Notes under the pieces: generated by a model
Seen by the model: the letters and a program-made list of their open reading frames with translations, nothing else
The model's database searches: none
Told to the model about the DNA's origin: nothing
Shown: piece by piece, positions 2,486-23,700 of the stretch
Layout: each line of letters begins with the position of its first letter
How positions within the stretch are numbered: position 1 is the first letter of the stretch
NCBI GenBank assembly: GCA_011390345.1
Contig: JAABSP010000005.1
Span: 36,004-100,003 of the forward strand
Reading direction: 5' to 3'
DNA length: 64,000 bases
Origin: Desulfobacteraceae bacterium
GTDB taxonomy: Bacteria; Desulfobacterota; Desulfobacteria; Desulfobacterales; JAABSP01
Translations under genes and position numbers: made by a program

Positions 2486-2540
2486 ACTCACCTCCGGTAC
2501 TGGGTTTTTCCGACTACCGCCCTTCCCTTTTCTACCGGTA

Positions 2541-4774: not shown

Positions 4775-6316
4775 TAGTTTTTCAAGAACAGTATCGTCAT
4801 CTGTGGGCACGAACATGGCCAGGGTGACGCACTTCAGCCCCATCTGCAGGGCATAGGCGGCAGCCTGCTTTTTCGACCGTTTTGCCTCGTGGATATCTAT
4901 GAAGCTCTTGACCTCGATCAGCCCCTTTTTCCCTTCGCACCGAAGATGAAGATCGACTTTTCCGTTGCCGGTGGGAAATTCCGGGCTCACGGAACAGCGC
5001 CGGCCAATGGCATTGAGGAGCCAGGAATAGAGATGAAAATGGCCCACAGCCTCGGTCAGATGGAGATCGGCCCGGCGGGGCTGATCCTTCCAGGGATTCA
5101 ATCCTCTGGCTTTCAATCGCTTCAAATAATCTTTGTATCTCGCCAGCAGAGCCAAAAGATCGAGTTCAGGTTCTGCGAATACATCGGCCAGATCATCCAG
5201 CGGATCGAGCGGGGGGATCGGGAGGACCTCACCGACTATATCCAGGGTCAGTGCGTTGTACAACGCCTCCTGAACAAAAGGGGAGGAGAAGCGGCAGATA
5301 TACTTTTTGCCGCGGGTTGCCGCAGGAATCCTTTCCTCTTCGATAATCCCGTTGAGATACAGAAAGCTGCACCAGTCAGACTGGATATTGAAGGGGATAT
5401 TCGATCTGCTGAACAGCTCGACCACATGATTCAGATAGGGCCTCTTTGCCTTCTTGATCAGATTCAAGACGGTGTTGTTCCACTCTCTGTGGATCGCAGC
5501 ATCATAGATCTCCTCCCAGAGCGGAAGATCGATGGGAAGATCTGCGCCGGGATTATAGGTTTCGGTCATCATTTCCCCGAACCAGCAGACCAGTCCCGGC
5601 TGACCCCGGGTCGCGGCATAGAGCCTCTCGATGATTCCCGGATCGACGATCTGTCCGCTTTCGGCTTCATACTGGCAAAAGAGGTCTTCCACCTCTTCCC
5701 GGCTGAAGTTGGGAACCCGCAGGGATCGCTGGATATTGAATGGAGACCCCCGCCGGCTTTCCACCCCCAGAACAGCCCGGACTCCTGCAAGCCCGAGGCC
5801 GTGGAGCAGATATCGGTTTCGGTCCAGATAGATCTCCCGGAACTGCGCGACCATCATGTCCAGCAGCTCCGGATGGAGGGTATCCACCTCGTCGATCAGC
5901 AGAATCAGCGGTTGATCCCAGAGCCCGGCCTCCCGGGTGAAGAGTCCGATGAAATCCTGCCAGTCCTGGATAGGCCCTACCGCGCCCGGCAAATTTTTTG
6001 CCAGCAGTTTCTCCAGAGCAACGGGAACGGTTCTGCCGGTCCTTTGGGCATCGGGCTCCAGGGCCGCGCCCCGAAGCCCTCCAAAGGAGAGGCGCTGCAG
6101 CGCAAACCGATCTTTGTATTCGGCGGAAATACTCTGCATCGCCTGCTGCATCAGCCAGGTCTTGCCGGTCTGTCTCGGAGCCCAGATCGTAAAGAAATGC
6201 CCTCCTTCTTCGATATCGCCGACCAGAAACCGGACGCAGGATTCAATCAACGCCTTTCTCGGGGCCACAAAATGCTTTTTCGCATCCACCGGCCCATAGG
6301 AATGAAACCGTCTCAT
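4715..6316 (-). CDS. P-loop ATPase with a C-terminal PD-(D/E)XK-like nuclease module
   Basis: 533 aa; ATG at 6316 behind AAGGAGAA. Walker A WAPRQTGKTW, Walker B LILLIDEVD. The C-terminus has GNGKVDLHL...GLIEVKSF (D...ExK pattern). Confidence 0.7.
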   Translation of the reverse strand: MRRFHSYGPVDAKKHFVAPRKALIESCVRFLVGDIEEGGHFFTIWAPRQTGKTWLMQQAMQSISAEYKDRFALQRLSFGGLRGAALEPDAQRTGRTVPVALEKLLAKNLPGAVGPIQDWQDFIGLFTREAGLWDQPLILLIDEVDTLHPELLDMMVAQFREIYLDRNRYLLHGLGLAGVRAVLGVESRRGSPFNIQRSLRVPNFSREEVEDLFCQYEAESGQIVDPGIIERLYAATRGQPGLVCWFGEMMTETYNPGADLPIDLPLWEEIYDAAIHREWNNTVLNLIKKAKRPYLNHVVELFSRSNIPFNIQSDWCSFLYLNGIIEEERIPAATRGKKYICRFSSPFVQEALYNALTLDIVGEVLPIPPLDPLDDLADVFAEPELDLLALLARYKDYLKRLKARGLNPWKDQPRRADLHLTEAVGHFHLYSWLLNAIGRRCSVSPEFPTGNGKVDLHLRCEGKKGLIEVKSFIDIHEAKRSKKQAAAYALQMGLKCVTLAMFVPTDDDTVLEKLSGSETIDGVGVNTTAIGWT

Positions 6317-6365
6317 TGTTTTTGATTTCTCCTTTACAAACTTTACCTGCTCCAGGCCGAAAATT

Positions 6366-8234
6366 TCACCCTTCAGAAGCCATCCTCAGATATTTTAGAA
6401 TCCTTGTGTATTGAAACCCTCGCACCATCCCCTCCAGGGAGTCCGCGATCTCCGGATCATCCAGACGAATCGTTTCGATCTTCCGCAGGACCGGCCCCCG
6501 GCTTCCCTCCCGAAGGCCATCCTCGATCCGGATCAGGGATTTTGCAGAGATTTTTTTCAACCGCGCCAGAATCTCTTCTTCAGAGAGCTTTTTCCGCTGC
6601 TGAACCGGTTCGGTTCCGGGGCTGCATCGGAGGTTGAGATGCTGCCGGATCATCATAATCAGTTCCTTCTCGTGAAAGGGTTTTCCGATAAAGGCATCGC
6701 AGCCGGCCGCCAGGGCCTGGAATCGGGTCTCTTTGAAGACCAGTGCAGAGAGGGCGATGATCGGGATTCGGCGCGGGGCTTCTCCGGCTTCGGCCCTACA
6801 TCTTTCCTCCTCCAGCCGGCGGATGGTCCGGGTGGTTTCAATGCCGGAGGAGCCCTGCAGTTGAAGATCCATCAGGATCAGGTCCATGCGCGCTTTCTCC
6901 CAGATGCGGATCGCACCCTTTCCGTCACATGCCTCTATCATCGTAAAGCTGTTTTTTTCCAGCATATGCTTCAGCAGCTTCCGATTTAACGGGTCATCCT
7001 CCACCGCAAGAACTGAGAGGTTGGGCCCATCCGGGTCCGGATGGAGGAAAAGATGCCTCGATTCCGATTCCATCATGGGTCTGTAAGCCTTTTCAGCTTC
7101 GATGTCGAAATCGAAGACCGTCCCCTTTCCGGTTTCGCTCTTGAGGCGCAGTTCGCCCTTCATGCTCCGGACGAGCTTGCGGCTGATGTAGAGGCCGAGC
7201 CCCGCGCCTTCTGGCTTGTCTCCGGATCTGGAATACTGATAAAAAGATTCAAAAACTGACGACTGAACATCTTCCGGTATGCCGGGGCCCGAGTCGGAAA
7301 CCGTAAAGAAGAGGCGGAGCGAATTCTTTTTATCCTTTCCATTTCCATGCCGGATCTTGAAACGGATACTCCCCCTTTGGGTGAACTTGACCCCATTGGA
7401 GAGGATATTGATGAGCACCTGCCGCAGCCGAACCTCATCGCCGATGATATACCGGGGGAGATCCGGAGCCGTCTCCATTTGAAAGGAGAGGTTCTTCTCC
7501 GCGGCACGGGGCCGGAAGAGGTTCGACACGAAAGAGAGCAGTTCTTTGAGATCGAACGGCTTTTTCTCCGGCAGGATCTCTTCGGACTCCAGCCGGGTGA
7601 ACTCCAGCACCTGGTCGATGATGGTCTTGAGATGCTCCCCGGAAGTCAGCAGCATCTGCGCGTTCTGCCGGGAGATCTCACACATGTCCGGATCATCCAT
7701 CAGCAGTTGGGCAAATCCGAAGACCGCGTTGAGGGGGGTGCGGAGTTCATGGCTGATATTGGCCACAAAGAGGTTCTTGGCCAGACTGTCCGCATCGGCA
7801 ATCCTTCGTTTCCGCTGCAGCTCCTCCTCGAACCGCTTCCGGTCGGTGATATCCACGGCGATGACAACGATGCCCTCCACCCCTCCATTTTCATCGATAT
7901 CCGGCACATAGGAGACATGGAGCCAGCAAATGCCCGAAGCCGATTCCATCGGAACTTCAAAGGTAACTGTCTCCCCGTTTTTCGCGGCCTCCAGCCGGGG
8001 GCGGGTCTTTTCAAAATACTCTTCCCCCAGAACCTCCGGGACAGTTCTGTTTAGAATCTCGGCCATCGGTTTTCCAAAGAAGACCCCGTACCATTCATTG
8101 ACCACCCGATATCGAAAGGATGCAGCATCCAGATACGCGATGAGCGCCTGCGCGTTGTTGAGCAGGATATGGATCAGGCGGCGGCATGATTTCAGGTCGT
8201 TTTGCATTTTTTCAATACCGTTCAAAATCCTCAT
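6366..8234 (-). CDS. hybrid sensor histidine kinase (PAS-HisKA-HATPase-REC plus a helical C-terminal tail)
   Basis: ORF 6366..8303. H-box [27 protein letters not shown], receiver LAVEDDPLN...LMDLQLQG. The start is uncertain: ATG at 8234 or 8207. The 8303 start would overlap the upstream MCP gene by 92 nt. Confidence 0.8.
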
Positions 8235-9951
8235 CCGAATCGGTCCCTTTGGATCGATATTCCATATCTTCCTTTTCGACCCTCTTTTTTGGTGTGCGCC
8301 CATCTTTCCCGATTTCTCTTTTCCCGAAAGCTGCGCCTTTCCCCTCCCCCATTTTTGCCGGCGCAGCCGATTGCCGTTTCTTCTCCTGCAGATTCAGGGT
8401 GCTGATCTCCCCTTCAGAGAGCTTGAACTTGGAAAGGATCTGCCGCAGCCCGCTCGACTGGGTCGCCAGCTCTTGAGCCGACGACGCGGTCTCCTCCGCG
8501 CTTGCCGTGTTCATCTGGGTCACCTGATCCACCTGCTCCAGCCCCTGGGTCACCTGTACGATGGACTCGGCCTGCTCCTGGGTCGAGGCCGCGATCTCGG
8601 CCGTCATTCTGGCGCTCTCCACCGATGCCTCGGAGATCCGCAGGAGCGCGTCCGCGGTCCCATTCGCGATCTCGCCCCCTTTTTCCACCTTCCGGATGGT
8701 GCTCTCGATCAGTTCCGCAGTCTCGCCGGCCGCCTTTGCGCTCTGGTTGGCCAGCTCTTTGATCTCGTTGGCCACCACCGCAAATCCTCTTCCGGCATCC
8801 CCGGCCGAGGCCGCCTCAATGGTCGCGTTCAGCGCCAGCAGATTGGTCTGGGACGCGATCGCGTCGATCACCTTGATGATCTTTGCTATGGATTTGCCGG
8901 CCTCGTCGATCTCCCCCATAGCCTGGGTCATCTTCTTCATCTCCTGAAGACCTGCGTCCGCCGTCTCCTTGAGCCCCTTGACGCTCTGGCTGGTTCTTTC
9001 AGCATAATCGGCATTGTTTTTCACCTGGGAATCGATCTCCACCATTGTGCTGGCAAGCTCCTCCAGAGAGGAGGCCTGTTCAGCCGCGCCCTCGGAGAGG
9101 GATTCGCTGGCCTCCGCGAGCTGGGATGCGGCATTGTCGATCCGGTCCGCAACCGCAGAAATTTCCGCCAGATCCTCCCGAAGGGATTCGGACATTATAT
9201 CCAGGGAGTCGGCCAGTTGCCCGCACTCGTCCTTTCTGCCGAGGCCGAGCTGGCGGGTCATGTCGCCGCTGGCCATGGTTCGGGCCGCATCGCCCACCCG
9301 GCTGATGGGAACCGTGATGCCCCGGGTGATGAAGATCGCCAGAAAAAGGCTCACGATCAGCACGAATGCCGAGACCCCGTAGTTGATCAGCACGGCTCTT
9401 CGGCCATAGGTTTGGGAATTTTCCAGAAACTCCTGGGCCTTGCCGGCCGCAAATTCGATGAAATGGTCCATGTCATCGGTCAACTGTTTCACCTGTGCTT
9501 CGCTCCTGGTGGCCTCCACTGTGCCGAATCCGTCCCGGCCCACCAGGGTCATGGTTTCGATCACCTCGTCACGGATCGGCTTCCACTCGGCAAAGAGCCT
9601 TTTGACCGCCTCAACCTGGCTCTTGTCCCCCAGAAAGCGCTCCTCCAGAACATCAAAGTCATCGGAGATCCGCTTTTCATATCGCTCGATCTCCTCTCTT
9701 GCGGCCCGGATCTCCGCTGGGGTCCGGGCCAGCGCAATATTCCTCATGTCCCGGTGAATCCGGATGATATCGGCATCGATGCGGAGTGCAGCGGTCGATA
9801 CCGTAAAGGGGTGTCGATAGAGCTTCTCGGTTGCTCCGGAAGTGGTCTTCAGTCCGCTGATGGAGATGATGTTGTTGATGATCATCAGCAGCAGAATAAT
9901 TCCGAAACCGATCCCCAGCCGCACTCCTATGCGCATATCTGAGATCCGCAT
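8212..9951 (-). CDS. methyl-accepting chemotaxis protein (two TM helices, four-helix-bundle sensor, HAMP, MA domain)
   Basis: 579 aa; ATG at 9951 behind GGGAGGGAG. TM1 is [19 protein letters not shown]. The signalling core reads [37 protein letters not shown]. Confidence 0.9.
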
Positions 9952-9993: not shown

Positions 9994-10440
9994 TTAAAGC
10001 GATTTCAGCAGCTTTGGTGCATTCAGCAGAATCAGCAGCCGGTCTTTGAGCATACAGATGCCGGTTATCAGATCCCGGACATCTTCGAGGCCCCTGGCTT
10101 GGACCTCCTGGCCCCGATCCCCCAGGTTTTCAATCCGCGCCGGGTCCACCTCAGCCACATCCCCCACCCCATCCACCAGAATCCCGAAGGACTCCCCCAC
10201 ATGGGGTTTAAAAAGAATGATCCGGTAATCCTCGGCTCCGGCGATCCTTTCAAAGCCGAGCAGGGTTCTCAGGTCGATCACCAGGTGAATGTTTCCCCGG
10301 ATATTGACAAACCCCTTGACGGCCTCGGCCGCATGAAAGACCGGGGTACACCGGGCCGGGGGCTGAACCTCTTTCACATCGGTGATCTCCACCCCGAAAT
10401 GGCGGTCCGCGATGTAAAATGTGCAGTACTGTCGGTTCAT
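9994..10440 (-). CDS. cheW: CheW coupling protein
   Basis: 148 aa: CTFYIADRHFGVEITDVKEV...VKGFVNIRGNIHLVIDLRTLLGF. Its start overlaps the cheA stop as ATGA. Confidence 0.9.
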   Translation of the reverse strand: MNRQYCTFYIADRHFGVEITDVKEVQPPARCTPVFHAAEAVKGFVNIRGNIHLVIDLRTLLGFERIAGAEDYRIILFKPHVGESFGILVDGVGDVAEVDPARIENLGDRGQEVQARGLEDVRDLITGICMLKDRLLILLNAPKLLKSL

Positions 10441-13400
10441 GAGACCTCCTCGGGTCTTTGGATCAGGCGCGCGATATCCTGCAGCAGCGCCTCCCGATCC
10501 AGCTTGATCTGATATCCGTTGAAACCGGCCTCCTTTGCCCGCTCCTGATCCTCTTCGCCATCCAGTGCGGTCAGGGCCAGGGCAGGAATCCGGGGCTGTG
10601 CGCTCTCCTTCCGGACATACTCCATAAAGGCCCAGCCGTTCATCACCGGCATATCGATATCCGAGACGATCAGATCGAAACGCTCCCTTTTCACTGCATC
10701 CATTCCCTCTTGTCCGTTCTCCACTGCCGTGACTTTATAGCCGTCGCTCTCCAGATATCCCCGCACCAGGTTCCGGAAAAAAGGGGTGTCTTCGAGCAGC
10801 AGGATCTTCTTTTGCTCCCGGGGCCGCGGGGCTGATTTCTTCCGCTCTTCAAACCAGTCCGGCTCCGCACGCTCGATCAGTTTGAAGATATCGAGAAAAA
10901 GGGTGATCCGGTTCAGGAGGATCGCTGTTCCCAGCAGCCCATCCTCGGTATGGCTTTGAGTATTGAGGCGCAGGGTCGTGGTGAGGGTATCCACCACCGA
11001 AGAGACCAGAATCCCGAAGGGTCTGCGGATATGCTTGGGCAGCAGCAGAAGCATATTCTCAGCCTCTTGGCAGGGTGAGACATGGAGCACGCTCTCCAGC
11101 CGCACCACCCGGTGGGGGACATCATCCACAGTGACGAACTCCCGATCCCCGATCCGCTCGATATCCCGGCCCCCGATCGGCTCTACCCGCCGGATCATGG
11201 GCAGAGGGACCGCATACTGCTCCTGGGGGCCGCTTTTGAAAAGAAGAACGGTCTGGCGCTCCTCCCCTCGGGCATCGGAGATCTCCGTTTCGGCCTCCCG
11301 CCGGTTGAACTGGACATCGGCATGTCTTGCGATCCCCTCGATGTCGAGGATCAACGCAACGGTTCCGTCGCCCATGATGGTGGTTCCGGCATAGATGGCC
11401 AGGGATTTGAGCGCGGAATGGATCGGGTTGACAACGATCTCCTCCACCCCCAGGACCCTGCCCACCACCAGCCCGTACCCGCGGGAACCGATCTTGACTA
11501 CAGCGAAGGTGAGGCTCTTCTGAAGCAAGGAGAAATCGGCCGGCGCATAGGCTTCTTCCCGTTTTACTTTTTGGCCTCTTTCAATGCAGATCTTTGCGCG
11601 GGTCTCCTTTGTAAAAGGCTCGGGACGCTGAAGAACCTCGGCCAGTTGCACCAGGGGCAGGAGCCGGTCCCGGAGCCGGAAGACCTCCTGATCCCCCGCG
11701 ATCTCGATCCGGGTGTCGATCTCCTTGTCCCGAAGGCTGACCAGCTCCACCAGATTGGATTGGGGGATGGCGTACCGGTTTTCCCCCACCGAGACCAGCA
11801 GGCAGGGAATGATGGCCAGGGTCAGAGGAAGCCGGAGATGCACCCTTGTGCCCTTCTCTTTTTCCGAATCGATTTCGATCCCGCCCCCCAGCCGCTCCAC
11901 TCCGCTGCGCACCACATCCATGCCCACGCCCCGGCCCGAGACATCGCTGATCTGCTCTACCGTGGAAAAGCCGGAGATCAGGATGAGATCGAAAAGCTCC
12001 CGATCCTTCATTTTTGAAAGTAGATCGGCCCCCTTGATGCCCTCTGAAATGGCCTTCTCCCGAACCGCATCCGCATCGATGCCGGCCCCGTCATCCGCGA
12101 TTTCGATATTGATCTGGCCGGCCTCATGCCAGGCCCTGACCCGGATCTTTCCGGTCTCGGTCTTCCCTTTCTGCCTGCGGATCTTTGGGGCTTCGATCCC
12201 GTGGTCGCAACAGTTGCGGACCAGATGGATCAGCGGGTCCGTCAGGGATTCCAGAATGGTCTTGTCCAGCTCCACATCGCCCCCTATGGTCTCGATCTCG
12301 ATCCTCTTGTCCAGCTTTGCTCTCAGATCCCGGACGATTCTGGGAAGCCGGTCAAAGAGATATCCGATGGGCTGGAGACGGGTCTGCATGATCGTCTCCT
12401 GCATCTCGGTGGTCACGATATCGAGCCGCTGGGATACCCCCCGGTAGAGCGAATCTGCGGCCGTCATGGCCAGCAGGTTGTTGCGCACCTGCACCAGCTC
12501 TCCGGCCAGCTTCATCAGTTTGTCCAAAATCTCCACCCGGATCCGCACCGTATCCTGGTGTTCCAGCGAAGAGACACAGGCCGATGCCTCGGGGGAAAGT
12601 GCGGTTTGGCCGGATGCTGAAGGCCGGTTCGGATCTTCGGCTGAACCCGTCGGAACCGGTTGGCCGGCCGGCTGACAGACCGGCGCGGAATCTCCTTTTG
12701 AATGCACCCGGGTAAGGATTTCGGGCCCCCAGCGCTCTTGGATACCGGCTTCTGAGAGAGGGGTCGCAAAGAGAATATGATAGAGCAGGGCCGCGTCGAG
12801 CAGATCCCCGTCAAAATCATCGGCCCCGGTTTCGATCCGGGTCTCGAGGATGAACCCCTGCTGCAGAAGATCCCGGATCAGCTTCAGCGGCGGAATGCTC
12901 CTCTTCTGCTGGAGATGGTTGAGGTTGAATCGGAGATGAAAGAGGTGGTGATCTTCAGGAAGGGAATCGAGACGGAACTGATTTACGGTAAACCCGGAAT
13001 CCTTCTCCTCCTCATCGAAAAGAGAGAGGGGCCTGCCCATCTTCTCCAGGGTTCCCGGGTTGCAGCCGGTCGAGATAAGATGCGAGAGGCGATCCGAAAT
13101 CCCCGAGATCTCCATCCCGTTTCCCCCCTCTTCCCCATCCAGCATCTTCCGGATCATATCCGTACCCGCAAGGAGCACGTCGATGATCTCCCTGTCGGGC
13201 TTTACATTCCCCTGGCGCAGGGTCTGCAGCAGGGTCTCCATCCCATGGCTCAACGCCATCATATGCTCATATCCCATGAAGCCGGCCCCGCCCTTGATCG
13301 AGTGGATGGAGCGGAAGATATTCGCGATCCGCTCCGGGTCCGGGGCCTTCTCTATGAAGATCAGCTCCTTTTCCACAGCCGACAGATGCTCCAGGGCCTC

Positions 13401-13451
13401 CTGACGAAACTCCTCCTTCAGCTCTCTCATGGAATGCTGCCACTCCTTCAT
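10437..13451 (-). CDS. cheA: CheA-type histidine kinase with two CheW-like domains and a C-terminal receiver
   Basis: 1004 aa. Hpt motif IHSIKGGAGFMG, kinase core HLVRNCCDHGIE...DDGAGID...GRGVGMDVV, and receiver ILLLEDTPFF...VSDIDMPVMNG. The start overlaps the upstream gene's stop as ATGA (13448-13451). Confidence 0.9.
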   Translation of the reverse strand: MKEWQHSMRELKEEFRQEALEHLSAVEKELIFIEKAPDPERIANIFRSIHSIKGGAGFMGYEHMMALSHGMETLLQTLRQGNVKPDREIIDVLLAGTDMIRKMLDGEEGGNGMEISGISDRLSHLISTGCNPGTLEKMGRPLSLFDEEEKDSGFTVNQFRLDSLPEDHHLFHLRFNLNHLQQKRSIPPLKLIRDLLQQGFILETRIETGADDFDGDLLDAALLYHILFATPLSEAGIQERWGPEILTRVHSKGDSAPVCQPAGQPVPTGSAEDPNRPSASGQTALSPEASACVSSLEHQDTVRIRVEILDKLMKLAGELVQVRNNLLAMTAADSLYRGVSQRLDIVTTEMQETIMQTRLQPIGYLFDRLPRIVRDLRAKLDKRIEIETIGGDVELDKTILESLTDPLIHLVRNCCDHGIEAPKIRRQKGKTETGKIRVRAWHEAGQINIEIADDGAGIDADAVREKAISEGIKGADLLSKMKDRELFDLILISGFSTVEQISDVSGRGVGMDVVRSGVERLGGGIEIDSEKEKGTRVHLRLPLTLAIIPCLLVSVGENRYAIPQSNLVELVSLRDKEIDTRIEIAGDQEVFRLRDRLLPLVQLAEVLQRPEPFTKETRAKICIERGQKVKREEAYAPADFSLLQKSLTFAVVKIGSRGYGLVVGRVLGVEEIVVNPIHSALKSLAIYAGTTIMGDGTVALILDIEGIARHADVQFNRREAETEISDARGEERQTVLLFKSGPQEQYAVPLPMIRRVEPIGGRDIERIGDREFVTVDDVPHRVVRLESVLHVSPCQEAENMLLLLPKHIRRPFGILVSSVVDTLTTTLRLNTQSHTEDGLLGTAILLNRITLFLDIFKLIERAEPDWFEERKKSAPRPREQKKILLLEDTPFFRNLVRGYLESDGYKVTAVENGQEGMDAVKRERFDLIVSDIDMPVMNGWAFMEYVRKESAQPRIPALALTALDGEEDQERAKEAGFNGYQIKLDREALLQDIARLIQRPEEVS

Positions 13452-15766
13452 CCTTTTTCCCCTTCTCTTTCAGATGCTGCTTCATGAATGTGATAGAGCT
13501 TTCCCAGGTTAATGAGGCAAAAGAGTTCTGCCAGATCCGGGGCCGCACCGATGATCTCCAGATCTGGCCGCTTTCCCGCTTTGGAAAGCATCTTCTCCAG
13601 CACGATAAAGGCGCTCAACCCCACCGAATCGATCTCCCGAACCGAACCCAGATCAAAGCAAAACGCGGTATGTCCCTGTCGGGCCAGCTTTTTCAGCAGC
13701 TCCCCGAAGATCGGAACCGAGGCCGCGGTGATGTCGCCGGTGGGCCGGATGATCACCCGATCCCCGGCCTTTTCCACCGGAAAATCGGTCCTGCCGAAGA
13801 CCTCATGGTAGACCGTCACCCGGTTTCCCCTGTTGTTGAACTCGATCTTTTCGGCAAAGGCATGTATAAAAGGATAGCCCCGTCTTCTCAGGCTCTTGGC
13901 ATCCTTGGGCAGATCGTACCGGAGGTCTTTCGGATCAAAGCCCTCCCCCTGATCCTCCACGATGATCCGGAAGAGATTCTTTCTGACCTGCTGCACCGTG
14001 CAGGAAACCCCTTTCTCCGGATCATTCCGGTTGCCGTGCTCCACCGCATTGATCAGCAGCTCCCGCAGGATCAGGTTGAATCCGGAAAAAGTCTCGAACC
14101 CGATGGTCTTCAGAAAATCCTTTGCCTCCAGAACCGCGCGATCCACCAGGGCCATCTCCGAAGCAAAGGTCATCCGCAGATCGGTATGGCTCTCCTCGAT
14201 ATGGAAACGGGAGAATTCAGCTCCCTCAACTGCAGGATCACTCACTCTTTCCTCTGTTTCCGGTTCTGTTTCCGGTTCTGTTTTCGGTTCCGGTTCCGGC
14301 GCGGGCTCTGCCGGAGACAGAATTTGATCGGTACGGGAAAAGCGCCGGCAAATGATTCGGGCAAGAATCGACTCCACCCCTTTCATTTTCGAAATCCGCT
14401 TTTCAATGGGACGGTTTCCATAGGCGGCTGCGGCATACTTCGTCTCCACGAACCCGGAAAGATCGGCAGTGATCCCCATGTCCATCCGCTCTGTCATATA
14501 CCGCTGCATCCGTTCGAGATCCGCGATGTCCGGAAAGAGATCGTCGGTGCAGACCTTTGAAGGCCCTTGCAGTACGCGCTTCAGCATCTCGGGCGTAAGT
14601 CCCAGATCTCCGTCAGGGTCGAGGAATTCCAGAGCGATCCTTTGGACATTTTCCGGATGCTCTGCCATATAAGCACCTGCCTCGACCAGCAGTCGGACCA
14701 GCTCCTGCGCCCCGGCTTCATGCTTTTCGAGCCAATCCTCCCGCACCGCAAGCACGCAGCAGGGATGGTTCTCCCAGAGCTGATCCGTATGGAAGAGAAG
14801 CTCCCCCACACCCTGATCGACAGCCTGTGTCCCGTAGGGCTCGGCCACGGCAAAACCGCTGACCTCGGCCTCCTCTGCAAGAATCCGGGGCATCTCGAGG
14901 GGCGGAACCACCTCATAGAAGACATCAGTGTCTGATCTGCCCACGGGTCCCAGCCTAAGGCCGATCTCCCGCAAAAAGATATCGGAGAGGATATGGTGGA
15001 TCGAGAGGGTATGGGGCAGCAGAAAGGTCTTCCCTTTGAAAAGATTGTGCAGGGTCTCCTGATCCGGATAGGGGCCCTGGTCTGTCCCCTGCCGGCGTCT
15101 GCAGACACAGGTGCTGCCGCTTCGATGGGCAAAGAGGATGAGCTTGATCTTTGCGTGGTTTGCAAACATATCCAGAGCCAGCGGCGCCAGAATCAGCGCC
15201 CCATCCACTTCCCCGGTCTCCAGAGCCCGGGCCGCGGGATTCCAGCTCGACATACACCGGGGCTCGATCTCTATCCGCTCCGGTTGAACCTGCCCCTCCC
15301 GGATCTGATGGACCAGGGCCCCCAGAACCAGGTGATCTGTGATCTGCAGATGCGCGATCCGGATGCGGGGTACCGCTGAAATTGTCTCTTTCGGGCTTTG
15401 GGCCCGGAGAACATCTGCCAGGGCCGCGCCGAGTTCTTCTCTGGTAAAGGGTTTGGTGATAAAGGCGTTCGCGCCGGCTGCAATGGCCTTTCTGGCCTGC
15501 TGAATCTCTCCTTGCGCGGTTGCGATGATAAAGGGGATGTGCCGGATCTTCGGATCTTTTCGGACCGCCAGCAACAGGTCATAGCCGCTGCACCGGGGCA
15601 TGTTCCAGTCGCTGATGATCAGGCCCGCATCGGGCTCCTCCCGAAGCTTTTGAAGGGCAGCCTCCCCATCCCCGGCCTCCAGAATCTCCCCATAGCCCAG
15701 CTCCGACAGCATCCGGATCTGTGCCCTTCTTGTCGTCTTGAAATCCTCTGCCACAAGGATTTTCAT
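13448..15766 (-). CDS. four-domain fusion: CheY-like receiver, NrtA/NasS-like solute-binding fold, RsbW/SpoIIAB-like serine kinase, STAS (anti-sigma antagonist)
   Basis: 772 aa.
- REC: MKILVAEDFKTTR...ISDWNMPRCSG.
- NrtA-like: RIRIAHLQITDHLVLGAL...VVPPLEMPRILAEEAEVSGFAVAEPYGTQAV.
- Linker: PEPEPKTEPETEPETEE.
- Kinase: LRELLINAVEHGN...IVEDQGEGFD.
- STAS: FDLGSVREIDSVGLSAFIVL, with the phosphorylatable Ser context DSxGL present. Confidence 0.8.
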   Translation of the reverse strand: MKILVAEDFKTTRRAQIRMLSELGYGEILEAGDGEAALQKLREEPDAGLIISDWNMPRCSGYDLLLAVRKDPKIRHIPFIIATAQGEIQQARKAIAAGANAFITKPFTREELGAALADVLRAQSPKETISAVPRIRIAHLQITDHLVLGALVHQIREGQVQPERIEIEPRCMSSWNPAARALETGEVDGALILAPLALDMFANHAKIKLILFAHRSGSTCVCRRRQGTDQGPYPDQETLHNLFKGKTFLLPHTLSIHHILSDIFLREIGLRLGPVGRSDTDVFYEVVPPLEMPRILAEEAEVSGFAVAEPYGTQAVDQGVGELLFHTDQLWENHPCCVLAVREDWLEKHEAGAQELVRLLVEAGAYMAEHPENVQRIALEFLDPDGDLGLTPEMLKRVLQGPSKVCTDDLFPDIADLERMQRYMTERMDMGITADLSGFVETKYAAAAYGNRPIEKRISKMKGVESILARIICRRFSRTDQILSPAEPAPEPEPKTEPETEPETEERVSDPAVEGAEFSRFHIEESHTDLRMTFASEMALVDRAVLEAKDFLKTIGFETFSGFNLILRELLINAVEHGNRNDPEKGVSCTVQQVRKNLFRIIVEDQGEGFDPKDLRYDLPKDAKSLRRRGYPFIHAFAEKIEFNNRGNRVTVYHEVFGRTDFPVEKAGDRVIIRPTGDITAASVPIFGELLKKLARQGHTAFCFDLGSVREIDSVGLSAFIVLEKMLSKAGKRPDLEIIGAAPDLAELFCLINLGKLYHIHEAASEREGEKG

Positions 15767-15790: not shown

Positions 15791-17026
15791 TCAGGGAATC
15801 TCCACCCCGGCCAGAAGCATGTCGTCTCCGGGCCGCCGGTCACAGTAACCGAGCACCCCGCACCATACAGAAGTGATCATCTCCTTCAGGAAAAGATCCT
15901 GGCCCCCCAGCATCAGCCGGTCCAGCGCCTCCTGATCCATTCGCTTTTTCCGCCCCCCGGCCGTATCGAGCCGGGCCGCGTTGGCAATCCCGTCCGTATA
16001 GATGAGCAGCCGGTCATCTGATTCCAGGCGAAGATACTCCTTCAGAAAGACCGGCCTTTCATGGATGCCCAGTACATCGCTTCCTTTCCCCCCCAGGGGC
16101 CGCCGGGGCTGCGCCTCCCCCTGTCTCAGGATCGCGAGCCACGGGTGCGCGGCCGAGACCAGCTCTGCGGTAAAATCGGCCAGATAGATGCGGCAGAAGA
16201 GCGCGGTGATCATCCGCTCATCCTTTCCGCTCTCCAGCAGGTGCTGGTTGAGGAGCCGAAAGAGGGTCTCGCCGTCGTTGCCTTTGTAGCAGTTCTCCTC
16301 GAAAAAAGCCTTGAGCAGGATCGTATAGAAGGAGGAGCCGATATCATGCCCTGCCACATCGGCCACGATCAGATCGATCCGATCGCGGGTCTCCCGGATG
16401 TCTATGAAATCCCCGCCCAGGTCCGACAGGGGCTGATGGCGCCAGTGGATCTCCAGCGAACAGGGATTCTGGCGGAGCTTTACCAGATCCCGATAGACAT
16501 CCACCGCGGAATCGATCTGCTGCCGCAGTTGTTCCAGATGGAGCTGATAGGTCTCCAGCTCGAGATCCAACCGCACCCCTTGGGAATGCTCTTTGTTCCT
16601 GCCATCTGCTCTTTCCCGATGCTGCGCCAGAGCCCTTTCCACGGTCTCCAGCAGCGGCTTTACCTTGATCGGCTTCCGGATATAGTCGAACGCGCCCTTG
16701 CGGATGGCCGCGATGGCCGTATCCAGATCGGGTTTGCCGGTGATGAGGATCACTGGTGAGGAGAGGCCGATCCGCTTCATGGCATCCAGCAGATCGATCC
16801 CGGTCTTCTCCCCCAGCATGATGTCGCAGATGATAAGATCGAAATCCTGAGTCTCCAGAAGCTTCCGTCCGGTCTCATAGTCGATCGCAGTTTCGATTTG
16901 CGGGTATCCGTTTTCAAAAAAAACGGCCTCCAGCATGCCTAGGATCTCGGCGTCATCATCGATTACCAGGAATTTGGGCTCAGATAAATGCTTCATATGA
17001 TTTTTGTTTTCTTGAAAGCATTGCAT
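15791..17026 (-). CDS. response regulator with a PP2C/SpoIIE-type phosphatase output (RsbU-like)
   Basis: ORF 15791..17038 opens with TTG. The ATG at 17026 (MQCFQ) or 16996 (MKHLSE) is more likely. REC: KFLVIDDDAEIL...ICDIMLGEKTG. PP2C: LSDLGGDFIDI...IVADVAGHDIGSS...LLIYTDGI. Confidence 0.85.
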   Translation of the reverse strand: MQCFQENKNHMKHLSEPKFLVIDDDAEILGMLEAVFFENGYPQIETAIDYETGRKLLETQDFDLIICDIMLGEKTGIDLLDAMKRIGLSSPVILITGKPDLDTAIAAIRKGAFDYIRKPIKVKPLLETVERALAQHRERADGRNKEHSQGVRLDLELETYQLHLEQLRQQIDSAVDVYRDLVKLRQNPCSLEIHWRHQPLSDLGGDFIDIRETRDRIDLIVADVAGHDIGSSFYTILLKAFFEENCYKGNDGETLFRLLNQHLLESGKDERMITALFCRIYLADFTAELVSAAHPWLAILRQGEAQPRRPLGGKGSDVLGIHERPVFLKEYLRLESDDRLLIYTDGIANAARLDTAGGRKKRMDQEALDRLMLGGQDLFLKEMITSVWCGVLGYCDRRPGDDMLLAGVEIP

Positions 17027-17198
17027 CCTTTCTCTCAAAAATAAGGATGTTTTGGAGCTATTCTAAACAATTCGAGAGGATTTTAAAACTCCTTTTTTCG
17101 GGTGACGCCACTTTGGTTTTCCTGATAAGATGGAGTTGTTTGATTTTTAATGTTCAACGACAAGGATGGTCTAACCGAACGAGGAATAGAAAATAGAA

Positions 17199-19271
17199 AT
17201 GAATATCGTATCTCCATGCCAACTGCTGGTGGTCGATGACGAAGAGGAGGTACTCAAATCGATCGGCCGCCTCTTTCGAAAGAAGTACACCATTCATACC
17301 GCAACGAGCGCGGCCCAGGGGTTCACCATCCTGGAGCAGAATGCGGTGCAGGTGGTTTTGTGCGACCAGCGGATGCCGAAAGTCAACGGGACCGAGTTTC
17401 TGGCCCAAGTCCGAATCCGCTACCCCCATATCGTCCGGCTGATCCTGACCGGATATTCCGATATCCATGCGGTGATCTCAGCGGTCAATGATGCCAACAT
17501 CTTCCGCTATATGACCAAGCCCTGGAAGCCGGAGGAGCTGGAAAAGGCCATCGACGAGGCCCACCAGTTTCATCTGAAAATCCATAAGGAAGAGCGCTTT
17601 TTGGACATCTTGAAAGATATGGGCGATGAGATGGAGGTGCGGATCTCAGAGAAGACCGAAACCCTTTTAACGGCAAATCAGGAGCTGCAACGCCTCTATG
17701 GGGAGAAGGAGTCCCTGATCCGGCAGCTTCAGGAGCGGGAGAAGCGGTATCGGGGGCTCTTCGAGGCGATCACCGATGCGGTCTTCGTCCATGAGGCTAG
17801 GCCGGATTTGACGCAGGCTCGTTTTCTCGAATGCAACGAGATCGCCTGCCGCAGGCTCGGCTACAGCCGGGAGGAACTTCTCTCCATGAGCCCCCATGAA
17901 ATCGATGCGCCGGATACGATCGTGGATACTGCGGCCATTTCAAAACGCCTTTTTAGGGGGCAATCGGCCACGTTCGAACAGATGCACATCACCAAAACCG
18001 GTGAGAGAATCCCGGTGGAGATCCATACCCGGGTCTTTGATATGGATGGAACCCCCCGGGTGATGTCGATTGCCAGAGATATCACCGAACGGAAGATCGC
18101 AGAGCGGAAGCTGACCCAGGCCAAAGAGGCCGCAGAGGCCGCAAACCGGGCCAAGGATCGTTTTCTGGCCAATATGAGCCATGAACTCCGCACCCCATTG
18201 AACGGCATCATGGGCTATTCCCAACTCCTCAAAGAGGATGAGACGATTTCTGAAACCCATTCCGAATCGATCGAGACGATCTACCAGTGCGGCAACCATC
18301 TGCTCGCCATGATCGAAGATATCCTCGACTTTGCCAAGATCGAGGCTGAAATGCTCGATATCGAAAAAAAGGCATTCGACCTCCATGCCTTCATAGACAA
18401 CCTCGGGAAGAACTTTGGGATCCAGGCCCGTAAAAAGGGTATCGGGTTTGAAATCCAAATCGATCCGGCCATTACCGGCCCTGTACTGGGAGATGAGAAA
18501 CGGCTTCGGCAGATTCTGTTCAACCTCATAGACAATGCGATTCATTATACGGAAAAGGGGAAAGTCGTGCTCGGGGCGGAAAAGGCAGGGGACCGGCTCC
18601 TATTCCGGGTGGAAGATACGGGCATCGGCATTCCAAAGGATCAGCAGGAGACCATCTTTACCCCCTTTTTCCAGATCAAAGACGGCCGCATTCCCGCTGC
18701 CGGCACAGGTCTGGGGCTTTCCATCTGCCGAAGGCTTCTCCATCTCATGGGGTCAAATCTCAGGGTAAAGAGTGATCCGGAAATGGGAAGCTGCTTTGAA
18801 TTTTCCCTCCATTGGACTGTTCTGCCGAAGAAAAAAGAGGGGAAATCCAAAAAGGCCGGGAAGATCGTCGGTTATGCGGGGCCAACCCGAAAGGTTCTGG
18901 TGGTGGATGACATCCCCTTCAACCGGCATCTGATGCGGATGATGCTCTCCAGTCTGAAATTTGAAATTGAAGAGGCCGAGAATGGCCTGGCCGCGCTGGA
19001 GCAGATGGAGAAGTCTTTTCCGGACCTGGTAATTTTGGATCTGCTGATGCCGACCATGGACGGTTACGAGTTTGCCCGCACCTGCCGGGAGCGGTTCGGA
19101 AATGAGCGTCCGGTAATCTTAGCCGTCACCGCGGATGCCACACCAAATGCGAAAAAGGAATGCCTCCGTTCCGGGTGCAATTACTGCATCACCAAGCCGG
19201 TTCAACTGCCGGAGCTGCTGGCAAAGATCGAAGAAGATCTCGGAATGGAGTGGATCTATGCGGAAAAATAA
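17199..19271 (+). CDS. hybrid sensor histidine kinase (REC-PAS-HisKA-HATPase-REC)
   Basis: 690 aa. Receiver LLVVDDEEEVL...LCDQRMPKVNG, H-box [26 protein letters not shown], second receiver VLVVDDIPFN...ILDLLMPTMDG. Confidence 0.85.
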   Translation: MNIVSPCQLLVVDDEEEVLKSIGRLFRKKYTIHTATSAAQGFTILEQNAVQVVLCDQRMPKVNGTEFLAQVRIRYPHIVRLILTGYSDIHAVISAVNDANIFRYMTKPWKPEELEKAIDEAHQFHLKIHKEERFLDILKDMGDEMEVRISEKTETLLTANQELQRLYGEKESLIRQLQEREKRYRGLFEAITDAVFVHEARPDLTQARFLECNEIACRRLGYSREELLSMSPHEIDAPDTIVDTAAISKRLFRGQSATFEQMHITKTGERIPVEIHTRVFDMDGTPRVMSIARDITERKIAERKLTQAKEAAEAANRAKDRFLANMSHELRTPLNGIMGYSQLLKEDETISETHSESIETIYQCGNHLLAMIEDILDFAKIEAEMLDIEKKAFDLHAFIDNLGKNFGIQARKKGIGFEIQIDPAITGPVLGDEKRLRQILFNLIDNAIHYTEKGKVVLGAEKAGDRLLFRVEDTGIGIPKDQQETIFTPFFQIKDGRIPAAGTGLGLSICRRLLHLMGSNLRVKSDPEMGSCFEFSLHWTVLPKKKEGKSKKAGKIVGYAGPTRKVLVVDDIPFNRHLMRMMLSSLKFEIEEAENGLAALEQMEKSFPDLVILDLLMPTMDGYEFARTCRERFGNERPVILAVTADATPNAKKECLRSGCNYCITKPVQLPELLAKIEEDLGMEWIYAEK

Positions 19272-19282: not shown

Positions 19283-19564
19283 CTATTTCTCCTTGAGCAT
19301 ATTGCTGATGGTCTGGGAGTTCCACCGCCCTTTCCCGGAAAGTGTCGGCACCCCCGCTTCATTCAAGAGATCCTCGATCTGCTTATAGGAATGCTTCTCC
19401 TCCCGTTTCCGCAGAATCCATTTAATGAGCATTTTCTTTTTGATCTCCCGTAGCTCATCATCGAATTTCTTCAATGGAATGCCAAGATCATGCGCCTTTC
19501 CCTGGATATCCTCGAGTTTATCTTTGATGTCTTTGAACAATGGATCTGTGTTGGGCTGCGTCAT
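19283..19564 (-). CDS. small protein with a resolvase/recombinase-type helix-turn-helix
   Basis: 93 aa. YKQIEDLLNEAGVPTLSGKGRWNSQTISNMLKEK matches the pattern seen in serine-recombinase DNA-binding regions. There is no catalytic domain. Confidence 0.45.
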   Translation of the reverse strand: MTQPNTDPLFKDIKDKLEDIQGKAHDLGIPLKKFDDELREIKKKMLIKWILRKREEKHSYKQIEDLLNEAGVPTLSGKGRWNSQTISNMLKEK

Positions 19565-19590
19565 CAGATCTTTTCCCGTTGAATAGCGAA

Positions 19591-20169
19591 TCAGGTGAAC
19601 AGATAAAAGGCGATGGCCCGGTCATAGGCTTTCTGCTCTTTTGTATCCATCTCCGGCAGGGCAAACTCCACATGAACATTCCCCGGCGAGATATTTCGAA
19701 CGATACCCTCTTTGCGGATCAGGGTCCGGTTCCGGTTGTCGAGATAGAACGCGAGAACAATCTGATCGTTTACGGAAAGACCGATACCGTTCCGGTTTTC
19801 AAAGCGCAGGCCATAGCGGGAGATATCTTTCACCCGCATGGGGCTTTTCTGCCTGCCCTTTTTTCTGCGGAAGACGCCGACAAGATCCACCGGTTTGCGA
19901 AAGGATTTGCGCCTTTCCAGAAAAATTATTTTGGAATAGCCGCATGCGCAACTGTGTCGGATATTGACCTTCCCTTCGGCCTGCTTATGTTCGGAACCAT
20001 CCATCATCATTGTCCTTTCGCATTCGGGGCAGACCAGCAGGATCATGGCATTCCGATCCAGATGGACCTGGTGATCGAAATCAGCGAATGTCGATTGATC
20101 CTGTCCGGTATTTTTCTGATTATCGGTTTGTAACTGCAGGCTCGTTGCCCTTTCCACGTCGATTTGCAC
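19591..20169 (-). CDS. PilZ-domain protein with an N-terminal zinc-ribbon-like CxxC...CxC
   Basis: The PilZ motifs RRKSFR (RxxxR) and DISRYG (DxSxxG) are present. Cys motifs: CPECERTM...SCACGYS. The start is uncertain (GTG at 20169 or ATG at 20046). Confidence 0.7.
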   Translation of the reverse strand: MQIDVERATSLQLQTDNQKNTGQDQSTFADFDHQVHLDRNAMILLVCPECERTMMMDGSEHKQAEGKVNIRHSCACGYSKIIFLERRKSFRKPVDLVGVFRRKKGRQKSPMRVKDISRYGLRFENRNGIGLSVNDQIVLAFYLDNRNRTLIRKEGIVRNISPGNVHVEFALPEMDTKEQKAYDRAIAFYLFT

Positions 20170-20724: not shown

Positions 20725-23700
20725 TCAATCCAAAAACCGCACCTCTCCATTTTCCGCTATGGTGATCCCTTCAGCAGATAGCTTTTTCAGAAGTTCTGTC
20801 ACCCTCTTTATAGGAGCCAGAAACCCTTCATATGAACGCAGCCCCCCCATATTGGCGATATTGAGCCGCTCGATGGGCGGAATCCGGATGCGGGCTCCCC
20901 CGGCCTGAACCTCGCCTGTCAGCGAGAGCAGTCCCTCCTCGATACGGATATGAACCCACCGGGGCGTTCCGGTGCGAAGCAGTCGGCGTCCGGAGACGAT
21001 CGCCTCGTTGCTCTCGTATGGATCGAGTCCATACAGAAGACGCTCCAGCGCCCTGGGGCCGATCCGGGTCATTCGCAGATCCAGTGCGATTTCCGACAGC
21101 AGCAGATCCATCCGCTCTTTCAGCGGCAGTTGCAAGGCCATTTCACCGGCCACTTCTGCAAGATCCGGATCTTCTGAACTCGAAACGGTCCCCAGAAACA
21201 GGCGGGTGTCCATGCCGGAAAAACCTACGCGGCACCGGAGGAAGAAATCATCTCCCCCTTTCAGCATGGCTATCGCTCCCATCACTGTCCCGCCCAGAAG
21301 ATCCAACTGAAAATAATCAGCATGGGGAAGGCCGTCATCAAGATTGAAATCCAGGGCCATTGGGCCGAGTCGGATGGGCAGGGGGCCCGCTGCAAAACGG
21401 GCTCCATCAAAGGAGATCGCGTGATGGGTGTTGTACCTCTGGCGCAGTTGCCCCAGGTAATTTCCCAGTCCGTTTTCATTCCCCCGGCCAGATTCCCCGG
21501 CCAGATCCTCTGATCGGAGAACCGATTCGGAAAGGGGCGGAATCTCGTTTTTTCTCTTCTTTTGACCCTCTGCGCCCTTCATCAGCAGATACCGCTTCCC
21601 CAGGTTCAGATCCGCACGCAGCCCCTGAACCGAAAGCTCTTCTCCCATTCGGATATCCATTCCATCGCTTTTGAAAATCGCTTCTCCTTTCACCTCCTGA
21701 TTCGGCGACAACTGTATGTTCATTCCCGCTCTCATCCCGCCCTCCAGCGTAATGCCCTCTGCCACCGCGCCAATATCCCCGTCCCTCTCTTTCACGATGC
21801 TGCCGGCAATCTTTCCGCCCATGTGCCGAAGCCATCCGGAGATGCCGCGGCTCTGCAATCCCCTTGCCATGCCGTAGAGGGAGAGATCCAGAGTCTGTTG
21901 GATCTTCAACTGATCCACCGTCATTGACTGGTTCATCTGAAAACTATCCAGCCCCTCCTGTCGGCCATCCATCAGGATCTCCAGCGTCAGCGGCACTTTC
22001 AGCGGTTTTCCCGGGGGCAGATCGGGAATCCGGACCCGGATGGCACTGCCGATCTCTCCTTTTCCGGAACGGCCCCTGAACTCATATCGGAGGGGATTCA
22101 ATGTCCGGATCGGGCCGAGCCGCATCGGGCCGCTCTTCTCCATCGGCAGGGATATCTCCAGATCATCGATGGTCGCGGAAAGATCGGCTTTTTCCAGAAA
22201 GGCCAGATCCTTTTTGAAATCGAGCTTCAGGGGATCGCTAAATTTCCGCATGGCCTCAGCATCCGGAATCCGGACGATCACCTCCCAGCCGAATCCGATT
22301 CCGCCCTGAAAGTTTCCGCCTTTGCTCGCCTTGTCGATCCAGTTTTTCGGCAGAGCGGAAAGGTTTATTGCTCCGGTGCCGTCTGTTCGGATTCCCGAGG
22401 CGGCCGAATTCCCCCGAGTCTGGGCCGTGAGGGAAAGTTTTACGATCTTTCCCGCAGAAAGAGCGGCCTTTGCCCCGTCGATGCGAACCGTTGAGAGATC
22501 AAAGCCGGGCAGGAGGATTCTTTTTACCCCGGCACTGAAATCGGCATCGACACTCAGGGGGCCGTAGGGAAGTGCAAAGACCGATGCGGTACCGATCTTC
22601 ACCCCGAATTGGGGCAGCCCAATCTGAATCAGGCTTTTCTCTGTCAGTTGGGCCTCAACTTTCAGGTTCTCCTGCAGGCTTTTGAGAGCGGCAAGCCCCG
22701 GAAGCTCGATCGCGGCGCAGGAGAGGGACTGATCCAACCATACCCTGCCCGTAATCCCCAGTGGCGCTTTTTCCGAGGACTCGATAGCCTCTGCCCGCAA
22801 ATGAAGATCTCTCATCGACATATTCCGCAGCCCCAGAGTTTTTCCCTGATCAACAGCTAATGATTTCAAATCCATCTGAAGAAGACTTTCCAGTTGTCGG
22901 GGAAAGAGGTCCTGCAGTTCCATCCGCATTTTCGGCACAGACAAGGAGAAGCCTTTTGCAGATATGGGCATCTTGCCCGATCGGTGTTCAGCATCGGGAA
23001 GATCGAGCCTCATTTCCAAGACTTCCACTACAGCCGCGCCTTTGGCGAGAGCGCCGGTCAGATGTATCATTTCCGCTTGAAATTGAGCCTTTTCTGAAAC
23101 TGCGATTGCCATTTGGTCCGGCAGAAGGGGCTTTATCCGGTATAGGATCTCTTTCAGGCCGAATGTCATGGGCCCCGCCACCAGATCGGCCTGGGGATCA
23201 CCGGCCCCAAGCTTTTGGATGGTCCCGGCCCATTGAATTCTCCCCTCTTCCAGAAAGGTGAGTTGTCCGTTTTCCAGAGTGAGCCGGTCTTCGCTGAAAT
23301 TGTAAGATGCATCATTGGCAAAGGTGTAAGCAAAAGGCCCCAGCGGTTTTCCCCTGGAAAAGGGGCCTGACGCGCGGAGATTTCCGCCCTGACTTTCCAT
23401 TTGGATCGCGGCTGTTTTCGGATTCAGTCCATCGAGTTCGACCCGGAATTCCGGAAGGGAAAACAGAATGAGATCGGAAAGAAGGGTCATTTCTCCGATA
23501 TTTGCGTCTAAACCGGGAATATTGAAATCGAATCCAAGCAGTTCGATGCTCCCGGGGTTTTGGGCCAATCCGCCATTTATATGGATCGAATCAACGGTAA
23601 GCATGGGTGGCGCACTGAAATGGAGGCGCATTTTCTCCGGGAAAAGTGGCCGAACCCGGTCAAGGATCTCCCCCAGATCCATTGAGACAGGGGCGATGGT

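Follow-up and report, generated by a model that had tools for sequence, protein, structure and literature searches.

A che-operon protein of a Desulfobacteraceae bacterium that joins a CheY-like receiver and a cytoplasmic solute-binding fold to a fused RsbW-type kinase and STAS domain

From our analysis of a 64,000-nucleotide stretch of a Desulfobacteraceae bacterium (GenBank assembly GCA_011390345.1, contig JAABSP010000005.1, positions 36,004 to 100,003; the whole stretch is called the window below), a gene of a che operon at 13448..15766 on the minus strand was found to encode, in a single chain of 772 amino acids (aa), a CheY-like receiver (REC), an NMT1_2-like solute-binding fold, an RsbW-type serine-kinase domain (HATPase_c_2) and a STAS domain. 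We consider it somewhat probable that this protein is the central switch of a non-motility, chemotaxis-like pathway, in which CheA would feed the receivers, the attached kinase domain and a PP2C phosphatase would set the state of Ser714 in STAS, and a Cys/His pocket in the solute-binding fold would provide a further input. What appears to be new is the kinase-STAS unit as a conserved component of che operons, the portable module made of a receiver and a Cys/His-pocket domain, and the combination of both in one protein. The finding is not a categorical surprise; it offers a testable entry to an uncharacterised sensory module and to a route from chemosensing to partner switching.

The gene is a single open reading frame (ORF) of 772 codons from ATG to stop in the ORF listing with translations, with a strong ribosome-binding site, GAGGAAGGGGGGG, immediately 5' of the ATG, and the identical protein is also present on an NCBI contig found by the homologue search. 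The sequence-only reading of this DNA had placed a receiver, an NrtA-like fold, an RsbW-like HATPase and STAS in this one chain, and the domain search that it proposed recovered all four above the Pfam gathering cut-offs, namely Response_reg at residues 3-116 (E 1.6e-22), NMT1_2 at residues 134-378 (E 2e-30), HATPase_c_2 (PF13581) at residues 535-652 (E 4e-13) and STAS at residues 664-761 (E 2e-7). All peptide strings quoted there are present in the translation, including VVPPLEMP, GFAVAEPYGTQAV and PEPEPKTEPETEPETEE, and EIDSVGL (13616-13636), WENHPCC and SDWNM were likewise confirmed against the coordinates. The four-domain order was sought in other genomes by one whole-protein homologue search, of which the 120 best matches were sorted by architecture, and 24 further clusters at 90% identity were found to carry it; their proteins are 728-983 aa long and 37-49% identical to the window protein, and they come from independent contigs or assemblies, the named sources being Desulfobacteraceae, Desulfococcaceae or Desulfobacterales metagenome-assembled genomes (MAGs). 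Fifteen of the 24 were aligned in full and match the window protein end to end, which gives the full-length alignment of 16 sequences used below. An artefact, by which two or more genes were fused through a sequencing or assembly error or the domains were matched by chance, has in our judgement a practically negligible probability. It would be favoured by the low-complexity, tandem-repeat-encoded stretch that connects the halves, a kind of sequence prone to error; yet the repeat is in frame at 12 nucleotides (nt) per unit, the 15 fully aligned homologues match over the whole length without it, the same four domains occur in clusters from different assemblies, all four exceed curated cut-offs, and both halves give high-confidence structure models. 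A fusion of two genes by sequencing error, which the sequence-only reading had itself raised, was thus rejected on the architecture of the homologues and the full-length alignment, and the recurrence of the gene order in other genomes is a further reason for considering the fusion genuine.

The connecting stretch itself, the acidic Pro/Glu/Thr linker PEPEPKTEPETEPETEE (14252..14311, minus strand), corresponds in the DNA to 3.9 copies of a 12-nt tandem repeat in frame (14253-14299) and is missing from all 15 aligned homologues; for these two reasons it is best read as a recent, lineage-specific slippage insertion in an inter-domain linker and not as a family feature. The linker does join the two halves in the window protein, as had been proposed, but it is no designed element of the family. 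An analogous TETSK/TETPK insertion was seen in the relative P0022.

The C-terminal half comprises an RsbW/SpoIIAB-type GHKL serine-kinase domain (residues 535-652; 13811..14164, minus strand) and a STAS domain of the anti-sigma antagonist type (residues 664-761; 13484..13777, minus strand), both identified by Pfam, by a family profile and by Foldseek. The family profile of this half matches kinases (SpoIIAB at 3.5e-9, RsbW and, marginally, Rv1364c, PDB 3KE6, at 1e-3) as well as STAS proteins (TM1442 at 3.6e-13, RsbV and SpoIIAA). Of the motifs for Mg-ATP binding, the N-box residues E569 and N573, the pair H577-G578 and the G1 box D605-x-G607-x-G609 are invariant or at least 90% conserved among the 16 homologues and among 21 kinase-STAS sequences, and these motifs align to SEAVTNAIIHG and DEGVGI of SpoIIAB. 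D713-S714 is invariant in the same two sets and aligns to the phospho-serine motif DSAGLG of TM1442, Ser714 (13625-13627, minus strand; coordinates checked) being the predicted phospho-serine. The earlier assignment of a C-terminal RsbW-like HATPase and a STAS domain with a DSxGL context is borne out by the agreement of profile, Foldseek and the invariant Asp-Ser. The model of the kinase-STAS half shows two domains with a mean predicted local distance difference test score (pLDDT) of 91 and a predicted template-modelling score (pTM) of 0.79, and the closest folds in Foldseek are RsbV (template-modelling score, TM, 0.87), SpoIIAA and SpoIIAB (TM about 0.75). The confidence of this two-domain model, together with the well-ordered short segment that connects the domains, suggests that the kinase-STAS arrangement is fixed. 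Intramolecular phosphorylation of STAS is plausible. Stand-alone kinase-STAS proteins of about 250 aa, 33-50% identical to this half, were also found.

A few relatives differ in their kinase part. The four-domain proteins P0022 and P0026 carry an extra N-terminal RsbW-like domain, and in P0026, where this second domain is present, the internal kinase motifs are degenerate; the G1 box and internal kinase motifs of P0025 are degenerate too. The window protein has one kinase domain only, with intact N-box and G1 motifs. Since the internal motifs can decay where a second RsbW-like domain exists (P0026), and since a PP2C gene is conserved directly upstream, a working kinase appears, from these sequences, to be needed.

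The middle domain (residues about 134-470; 14357..15367, minus strand) was identified by Pfam, AlphaFold2, Foldseek and phmmer as a cytoplasmic NrtA/SsuA-type solute-binding fold with an all-helical C-terminal subdomain. The AlphaFold2 model of residues 120-480 (pLDDT 93, pTM 0.91) shows the two lobes of a class II solute-binding fold and, after them, the all-helical subdomain. The first-ranked Foldseek match is 3UN6, a ligand-binding protein of ATP-binding cassette (ABC) import from Staphylococcus aureus whose deposit is zinc-bound (E 8.5e-23, TM 0.91 on the target), and later matches include the regulatory domain of CmpC (CmpC-CRD), periplasmic NrtA, NrtC, TauA, SsuA, CmpA and Thi5, with E-values of 9.6e-19 for 9UAI, 5.4e-18 for 2G29 and 5.9e-16 for 8WM7_C; phmmer against the PDB agrees with Foldseek, its best sequence match again being 3UN6 (E 1.2e-17). 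The cytoplasmic NrtA-like fold of the sequence-only reading is therefore correct, because structure and sequence searches alike lead to CmpC, NrtA and NrtC. Its suggestion of a ligand of the nitrate, nitrite or bicarbonate type is not supported. Nitrate binding is set by a lysine, K269 of NrtA and K480 of Anabaena NrtC, the mutation of which greatly weakens binding (PMC10945777), and in the phmmer alignment to 8wm7_C this K480 pairs with Cys337, the last residue of a W-E-N-H-P-C-C motif (residues 331-337; 14756..14776, minus strand; coordinates checked), whose family form W-x-x-H-P-C-C is nearly invariant. Position 337 is Cys in 180 of the 184 family domains, which represent all proteins fetched that carry the middle domain, and across these instances the pocket is conserved at His334 (100%), His145 (99%), Asp144 (99%), Cys337 (98%), His214 (96%), Cys336 (92%), His252 (90%) and His257 (90%). 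By the phmmer alignment, 3UN6 has the Cys-Cys pair and equivalents of His214, His252 and His257. A 2026 paper on clade-B carbon monoxide dehydrogenase (CODH) operons describes 3UN6 as zinc-binding with unknown function, and a related solute-binding protein (SBP) of these operons, of unknown substrate, was modelled there with two Cys and one or two His as the ligands of a metal (PMC13592312). As Cys337 replaces the nitrate lysine and the pocket resembles 3UN6 and the metal site of that SBP, the pocket is probably a site for a metal ion or a metal-coordinated small molecule and not for nitrate or bicarbonate, and the latter was rejected as a specific reading.

Two groups of proteins are useful for comparison with this domain. 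The regulatory domains of NrtC and CmpC, NrtA and CmpA have the same two-lobed fold and all-helical C-terminal subdomain, and the C-terminal domains of NrtC and CmpC are a precedent for the use of a solute-binding fold in the cytoplasm for regulation (PMC10945777). However, the lysine K269 or K480 of NrtA and NrtC is replaced in the window domain by a Cys inside an invariant HPCC motif, and where the NrtC and CmpC domains are joined to an ABC ATPase, the window domain is joined to a receiver and to signalling outputs. The closest relative in sequence and fold is 3UN6, to which the clade-B CODH SBPs are related, the Cys-Cys pair and three conserved His being shared with 3UN6; in contrast to these secreted transporter components, the window domain has no signal peptide and lies inside a cytoplasmic signalling protein.

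The receiver (residues 3-116; 15419..15760, minus strand) has CheY as its best PDB match (8e-23) and the CheY model as its best NCBIfam match. Residues E7/D8, D53 within SDWNMP, T83, F102 and K105 are invariant in the 16 aligned sequences, so that, as judged from its residues, the receiver has the full set of acidic pocket, acceptor Asp, Thr, aromatic switch residue and Lys, with Asp53 (15608-15610, minus strand; alignment, coordinates checked) as the predicted phospho-acceptor. SDWNMP is the motif of Escherichia coli CheY, and the CheY-like character proposed earlier is supported by both databases and by these residues.

The receiver and the NMT1_2 domain together form a mobile module of about 480 aa, which is found by itself and in fusions with CheW, a CheA core, PP2C or kinase-STAS. 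Among the 120 best matches, about 50 are REC-NMT1_2-CheW proteins and about 35 are the module alone (about 483 aa) or with a short tail, e.g., a TPR-like end; in 6 the module is combined with SpoIIE and in 2 with a CheA core, where it takes the position of Hpt, and some have tandem modules. An exhaustive search of 1.84 billion representatives yielded the full module in about 35 clusters (50% identity level), and REC-less cytoplasmic versions of about 310 aa were also found. By a scan of genome contigs, the module is present in the cultured Desulfatibacillum alkenivorans (DSM 16219), Desulfoluna spongiiphila (AA1), Desulfacinum hydrothermale, Desulfamplus magnetovallimortis and Rosettibacter primus, and in MAGs labelled Chloroflexota, Ignavibacteriaceae and Melioribacteraceae. 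Several variants deserve mention. In the CheA-like protein P0110 (L090:7001-10600), REC-NMT1_2 replaces the N-terminal Hpt (P1) domain, while the dimerisation, HATPase_c, CheW-like and C-terminal REC domains are kept; next to it lie a LarA-like gene and one for a class III nucleotide cyclase. P0002, P0006 and P0144 carry two complete REC-NMT1_2 modules in tandem, the C-terminus of P0006 being a CheW domain. In L008:4647-6487 and L009:35-1560, a DUF169 gene stands before the gene of a REC-less HPCC-type NMT1_2 protein of 311 aa; in L008 this pair shares a cluster with genes for kinase-STAS, REC-SpoIIE, a single REC and an Hpt protein, and in L009 it is followed by a PAS-containing methyl-accepting chemotaxis protein (MCP). 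Neighbouring genes gave no consistent partner as a clue to the ligand (a LarA-like gene and a cyclase for P0110, an FAD oxidoreductase for P0041, CheB for P0103, DUF169 for the REC-less form). Literature searches for NMT1_2 or NMT1 with a response regulator or CheW found no description of the module, and those linking HATPase_c_2/STAS or partner switching to chemosensory systems or CheA returned nothing relevant.

The 772-aa gene is the second of a five-gene unit on the minus strand. Upstream lies a gene for a REC-PP2C phosphatase of the SpoIIE type (15791..17038; Pfam SpoIIE 1.9e-25, REC 6.2e-23), in which the metal-binding motifs GGDFID, ADVAGHD, TDG and GDD are visible and which is likely the Ser714 phosphatase. 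Downstream are genes identified by Pfam as a hybrid CheA with Hpt, dimerisation, HATPase_c, CheW-like and REC domains (10437..13451), its Hpt domain bearing an HSIKGG motif, CheW (9994..10440; 2.9e-25) and a methyl-accepting chemoreceptor with 4HB_MCP, HAMP and MCPsignal domains (8212..9951). The 772-aa gene shares 4 nt (ATGA) at its stop with the start of cheA, the two being translationally coupled, and cheA and cheW likewise overlap by 4 nt. A promoter-like site lies 5' of the REC-PP2C gene (17087-17060), and no minus-strand terminator-like sites were found inside the five-gene unit. The link to CheA that the sequence-only reading had proposed is thus supported by context, through the overlap with the cheA start and the gene order conserved in other genomes.

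We then compared related loci. Two other genomes, L001 and L004, have the five-gene order of the window, with 46% identity. L001 (Desulfobacterales bacterium HSG16) has REC-SpoIIE, the four-domain protein, CheA-REC, CheW, MCP and then CheB; in L004 (GCA_011389855.1) this order is kept, but a gene for a secreted NMT1_2 protein stands after CheW and before MCP, and CheB is located farther downstream. A paralogue in the HSG16 genome (L005) is arranged as L001 without CheW and CheB and has an extra, separate 146-aa RsbW-like gene (L005:7547-7987) just upstream of the four-domain relative. The stand-alone kinase-STAS of about 250 aa follows REC-SpoIIE and lies directly before cheA in L007 (GCA_037963515.1), and it also lies directly before cheA in L002 (an ENA metagenome), where CheR, CheB and CheD are present. 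In L008 (a Logan assembly), kinase-STAS, a single REC and the REC-less HPCC-type NMT1_2 protein are separate genes of one cluster, which also encodes an Hpt protein and REC-SpoIIE; this split version ties the parts together functionally. REC-SpoIIE is conserved upstream in L001, L004, L005, L007 and L008. From these gene orders, the conserved core is REC-PP2C, kinase-STAS, CheA and a chemoreceptor, usually with CheW, and the N-terminal REC-NMT1_2 part is an add-on. The kinase-STAS form also occurs in a Candidatus Anammoxibacter MAG, the operon family occurring here in Desulfobacterales MAGs. The secreted protein of L004 (L004:13837-14859), a 340-aa member of the NMT1_2 family with a signal peptide, may present a ligand to the receptor in the periplasm; as a candidate HPCC-type relative it was rejected, since it has a signal peptide, lacks the HPCC motif and belongs to a different subfamily.

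Among studied systems, the kinase-STAS fusion itself has a precedent. Rv1364c of Mycobacterium tuberculosis is a PAS-PP2C-kinase-STAS protein that autophosphorylates its own STAS at Ser600 and autodephosphorylates it (PMC7693655, PMC9138534). In view of Rv1364c and of the stand-alone kinase-STAS family, the earlier statement that kinase and STAS are separate proteins in partner switching was too strong. Like the window protein, Rv1364c has an RsbW-type kinase directly followed by its STAS substrate in one polypeptide; however, it has a PAS sensor and keeps PP2C in the same chain, whereas the window protein has a CheY-like receiver and a solute-binding fold and its PP2C is separate and receiver-controlled. 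Furthermore, Rv1364c belongs to the SigF regulon context and the window protein to a che operon, and their sequence similarity is marginal. At the level of the system, the closest studied parallel by analogy is the che1 locus of Shewanella oneidensis, in which CrsR (REC-PP2C-kinase) and CrsA (STAS) occur with CheA, CheW and MCPs and regulate RpoS (PMC9855816); HsbR/HsbA of Pseudomonas aeruginosa is the homologue of CrsR/CrsA (PMC6482189). These pairs use the same toolkit as the window, i.e., receiver, PP2C, RsbW-type kinase and STAS, and CrsR/CrsA is also placed in a chemosensory cluster. CrsR and HsbR, however, combine REC, PP2C and kinase in one protein with a free STAS partner, whereas in the window REC-PP2C is separate, the kinase is fused to STAS, and a second receiver and a ligand-binding domain are added. 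CrsR and HsbR bind RpoS, whereas no target was found for the window protein in about 36 ORFs of the window and 10 related loci. Array adaptors such as CheV (CheW-REC) also combine a CheY-type receiver with an array component, as the REC-NMT1_2-CheW sister proteins do, but CheV has another domain order and no inserted solute-binding-fold sensor, and the window protein has kinase-STAS instead of CheW. In essence, the window protein works like a partner switch, its membership being incomplete on account of an atypical G2 box and of the lack of a switched partner in the ORFs and loci scanned.

In the pathway we favour, the receptor array would control CheA, and phosphate from CheA would pass to the receiver of REC-PP2C and to Asp53 of the 772-aa protein, the C-terminal receiver of CheA itself probably being a phosphate sink. 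The kinase domain would phosphorylate Ser714 of the attached STAS, within the chain or across a dimer, and the receiver-activated REC-PP2C would remove this phosphate. The stored output would be the state of Ser714, with STAS either docked on its own kinase domain or STAS or kinase free for a downstream partner. The receiver and the solute-binding-type domain would act as a portable input module whose signals are phosphorylation and the occupancy or redox state of the Cys/His pocket. A bolder extension is possible but doubtful. In it, the receiver and HPCC unit would represent a new class of cytoplasmic input modules of chemosensory arrays, with a metal site that senses a small molecule or redox state, and the window protein would be a self-phosphorylating one-protein partner switch, wired into an array, with three inputs (array, receiver phosphorylation and metal-site ligand).

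Several observations weigh against the favoured pathway. Neither a sigma or anti-sigma factor nor another obvious target was seen in the ORFs and loci scanned, and the switched partner may be encoded elsewhere; the metal in the pocket comes from alignment and a literature model and not from coordinates; and the four-domain homologue of L006 (a JGI metagenome) sits outside any che cluster. The G2 box of the ATP lid is R-x-R-G630-[YFL]-[PAG] across the family, with one glycine where SpoIIAB has G-M-G (G-x-G), and catalytic competence is therefore not assured. This last point is the starting point for a different account, in which HATPase_c_2 binds STAS without phosphorylating it, STAS remains permanently tethered, and docking is set by receiver phosphorylation and ligand, or the serine is phosphorylated by another kinase. 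The extra RsbW-like domains of P0022 and P0026 or the extra RsbW-like gene of L005 could be that real kinase, and one study of Rv1364c reports, by its title, 'Loss of kinase activity'. Nevertheless, we hold such a pseudokinase to be quite improbable, as little or no variation is seen within the clade of the window protein at the Glu and Asn of the N-box and at D-x-G-x-G of G1, the Asp-Ser is invariant, a second RsbW-like gene is absent from the window operon, L001, L004 and L007, and the dedicated PP2C gene conserved directly upstream is sensible only if the serine gets phosphorylated.

It is also conceivable, and in our view unlikely though less so than a pseudokinase, that the protein resides in the array as an accessory or feedback component, its receiver and binding fold docking to the array or CheA and its kinase-STAS part tuning CheA or the receptors beside or instead of methylation adaptation. 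CheW is the commonest fusion partner of REC-NMT1_2 (in about 50 of the 120 best matches), the module can stand in for the Hpt of a CheA-like protein (P0110), and in all che-linked loci examined cheA is immediately preceded by the kinase-STAS gene, with the stop/start overlap in the window; such adjacency, however, would be expected equally for a pathway output. The lack of a nearby sigma or anti-sigma target would fit a role within the array, and so would the lack of CheB and CheR genes beside the window cluster, where none were found among the scanned window ORFs. Yet CheB stands beside the same operon in L001 and L004, and L002 has CheR, CheB and CheD; the kinase-STAS unit is therefore no simple substitute for the adaptation enzymes. 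Moreover, an RsbW/STAS pair acting on CheA has no known example.

For the pathway with Ser714 as its switch, the interest lies in the output side. The outputs of non-motility chemosensory pathways are mostly unknown, and this operon family provides a defined and compact way of linking a receptor array to a switch by serine phosphorylation, while the fused kinase-STAS provides a one-protein system for cis versus trans phosphorylation in partner switching. The module of about 480 aa, with its receiver and Cys/His pocket, is strongly conserved and recurs on at least five different outputs; its ligand, once identified, would show what these anaerobes monitor intracellularly and may help with the substrate of 3UN6-type and CODH-associated SBPs.

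The che operon is surrounded by other signalling genes, namely three hybrid histidine kinases, a REC-GGDEF protein and an AAA_35 protein (1331-8303, minus strand; 17199-19271, plus strand), from which cross-talk or a cyclic di-GMP output is possible. A 93-aa serine-recombinase fragment and a PilZ-domain protein are encoded at 19283-20169 (minus strand), where the G+C content falls to 0.44-0.50, against about 0.57-0.60 in the che operon; this patch may be a mobile-element remnant between signalling genes. Further along, a 1456-aa protein (20725-25095, minus strand) has a weak YhdP-like N-terminus and about a dozen pentapeptide repeats in a row (VADSS/VGDRS), and a RecQ helicase (36543-39473, plus strand) carries extra C-terminal HTH_40 and dual-OB (DuOB) domains and is followed by a DUF488 gene.

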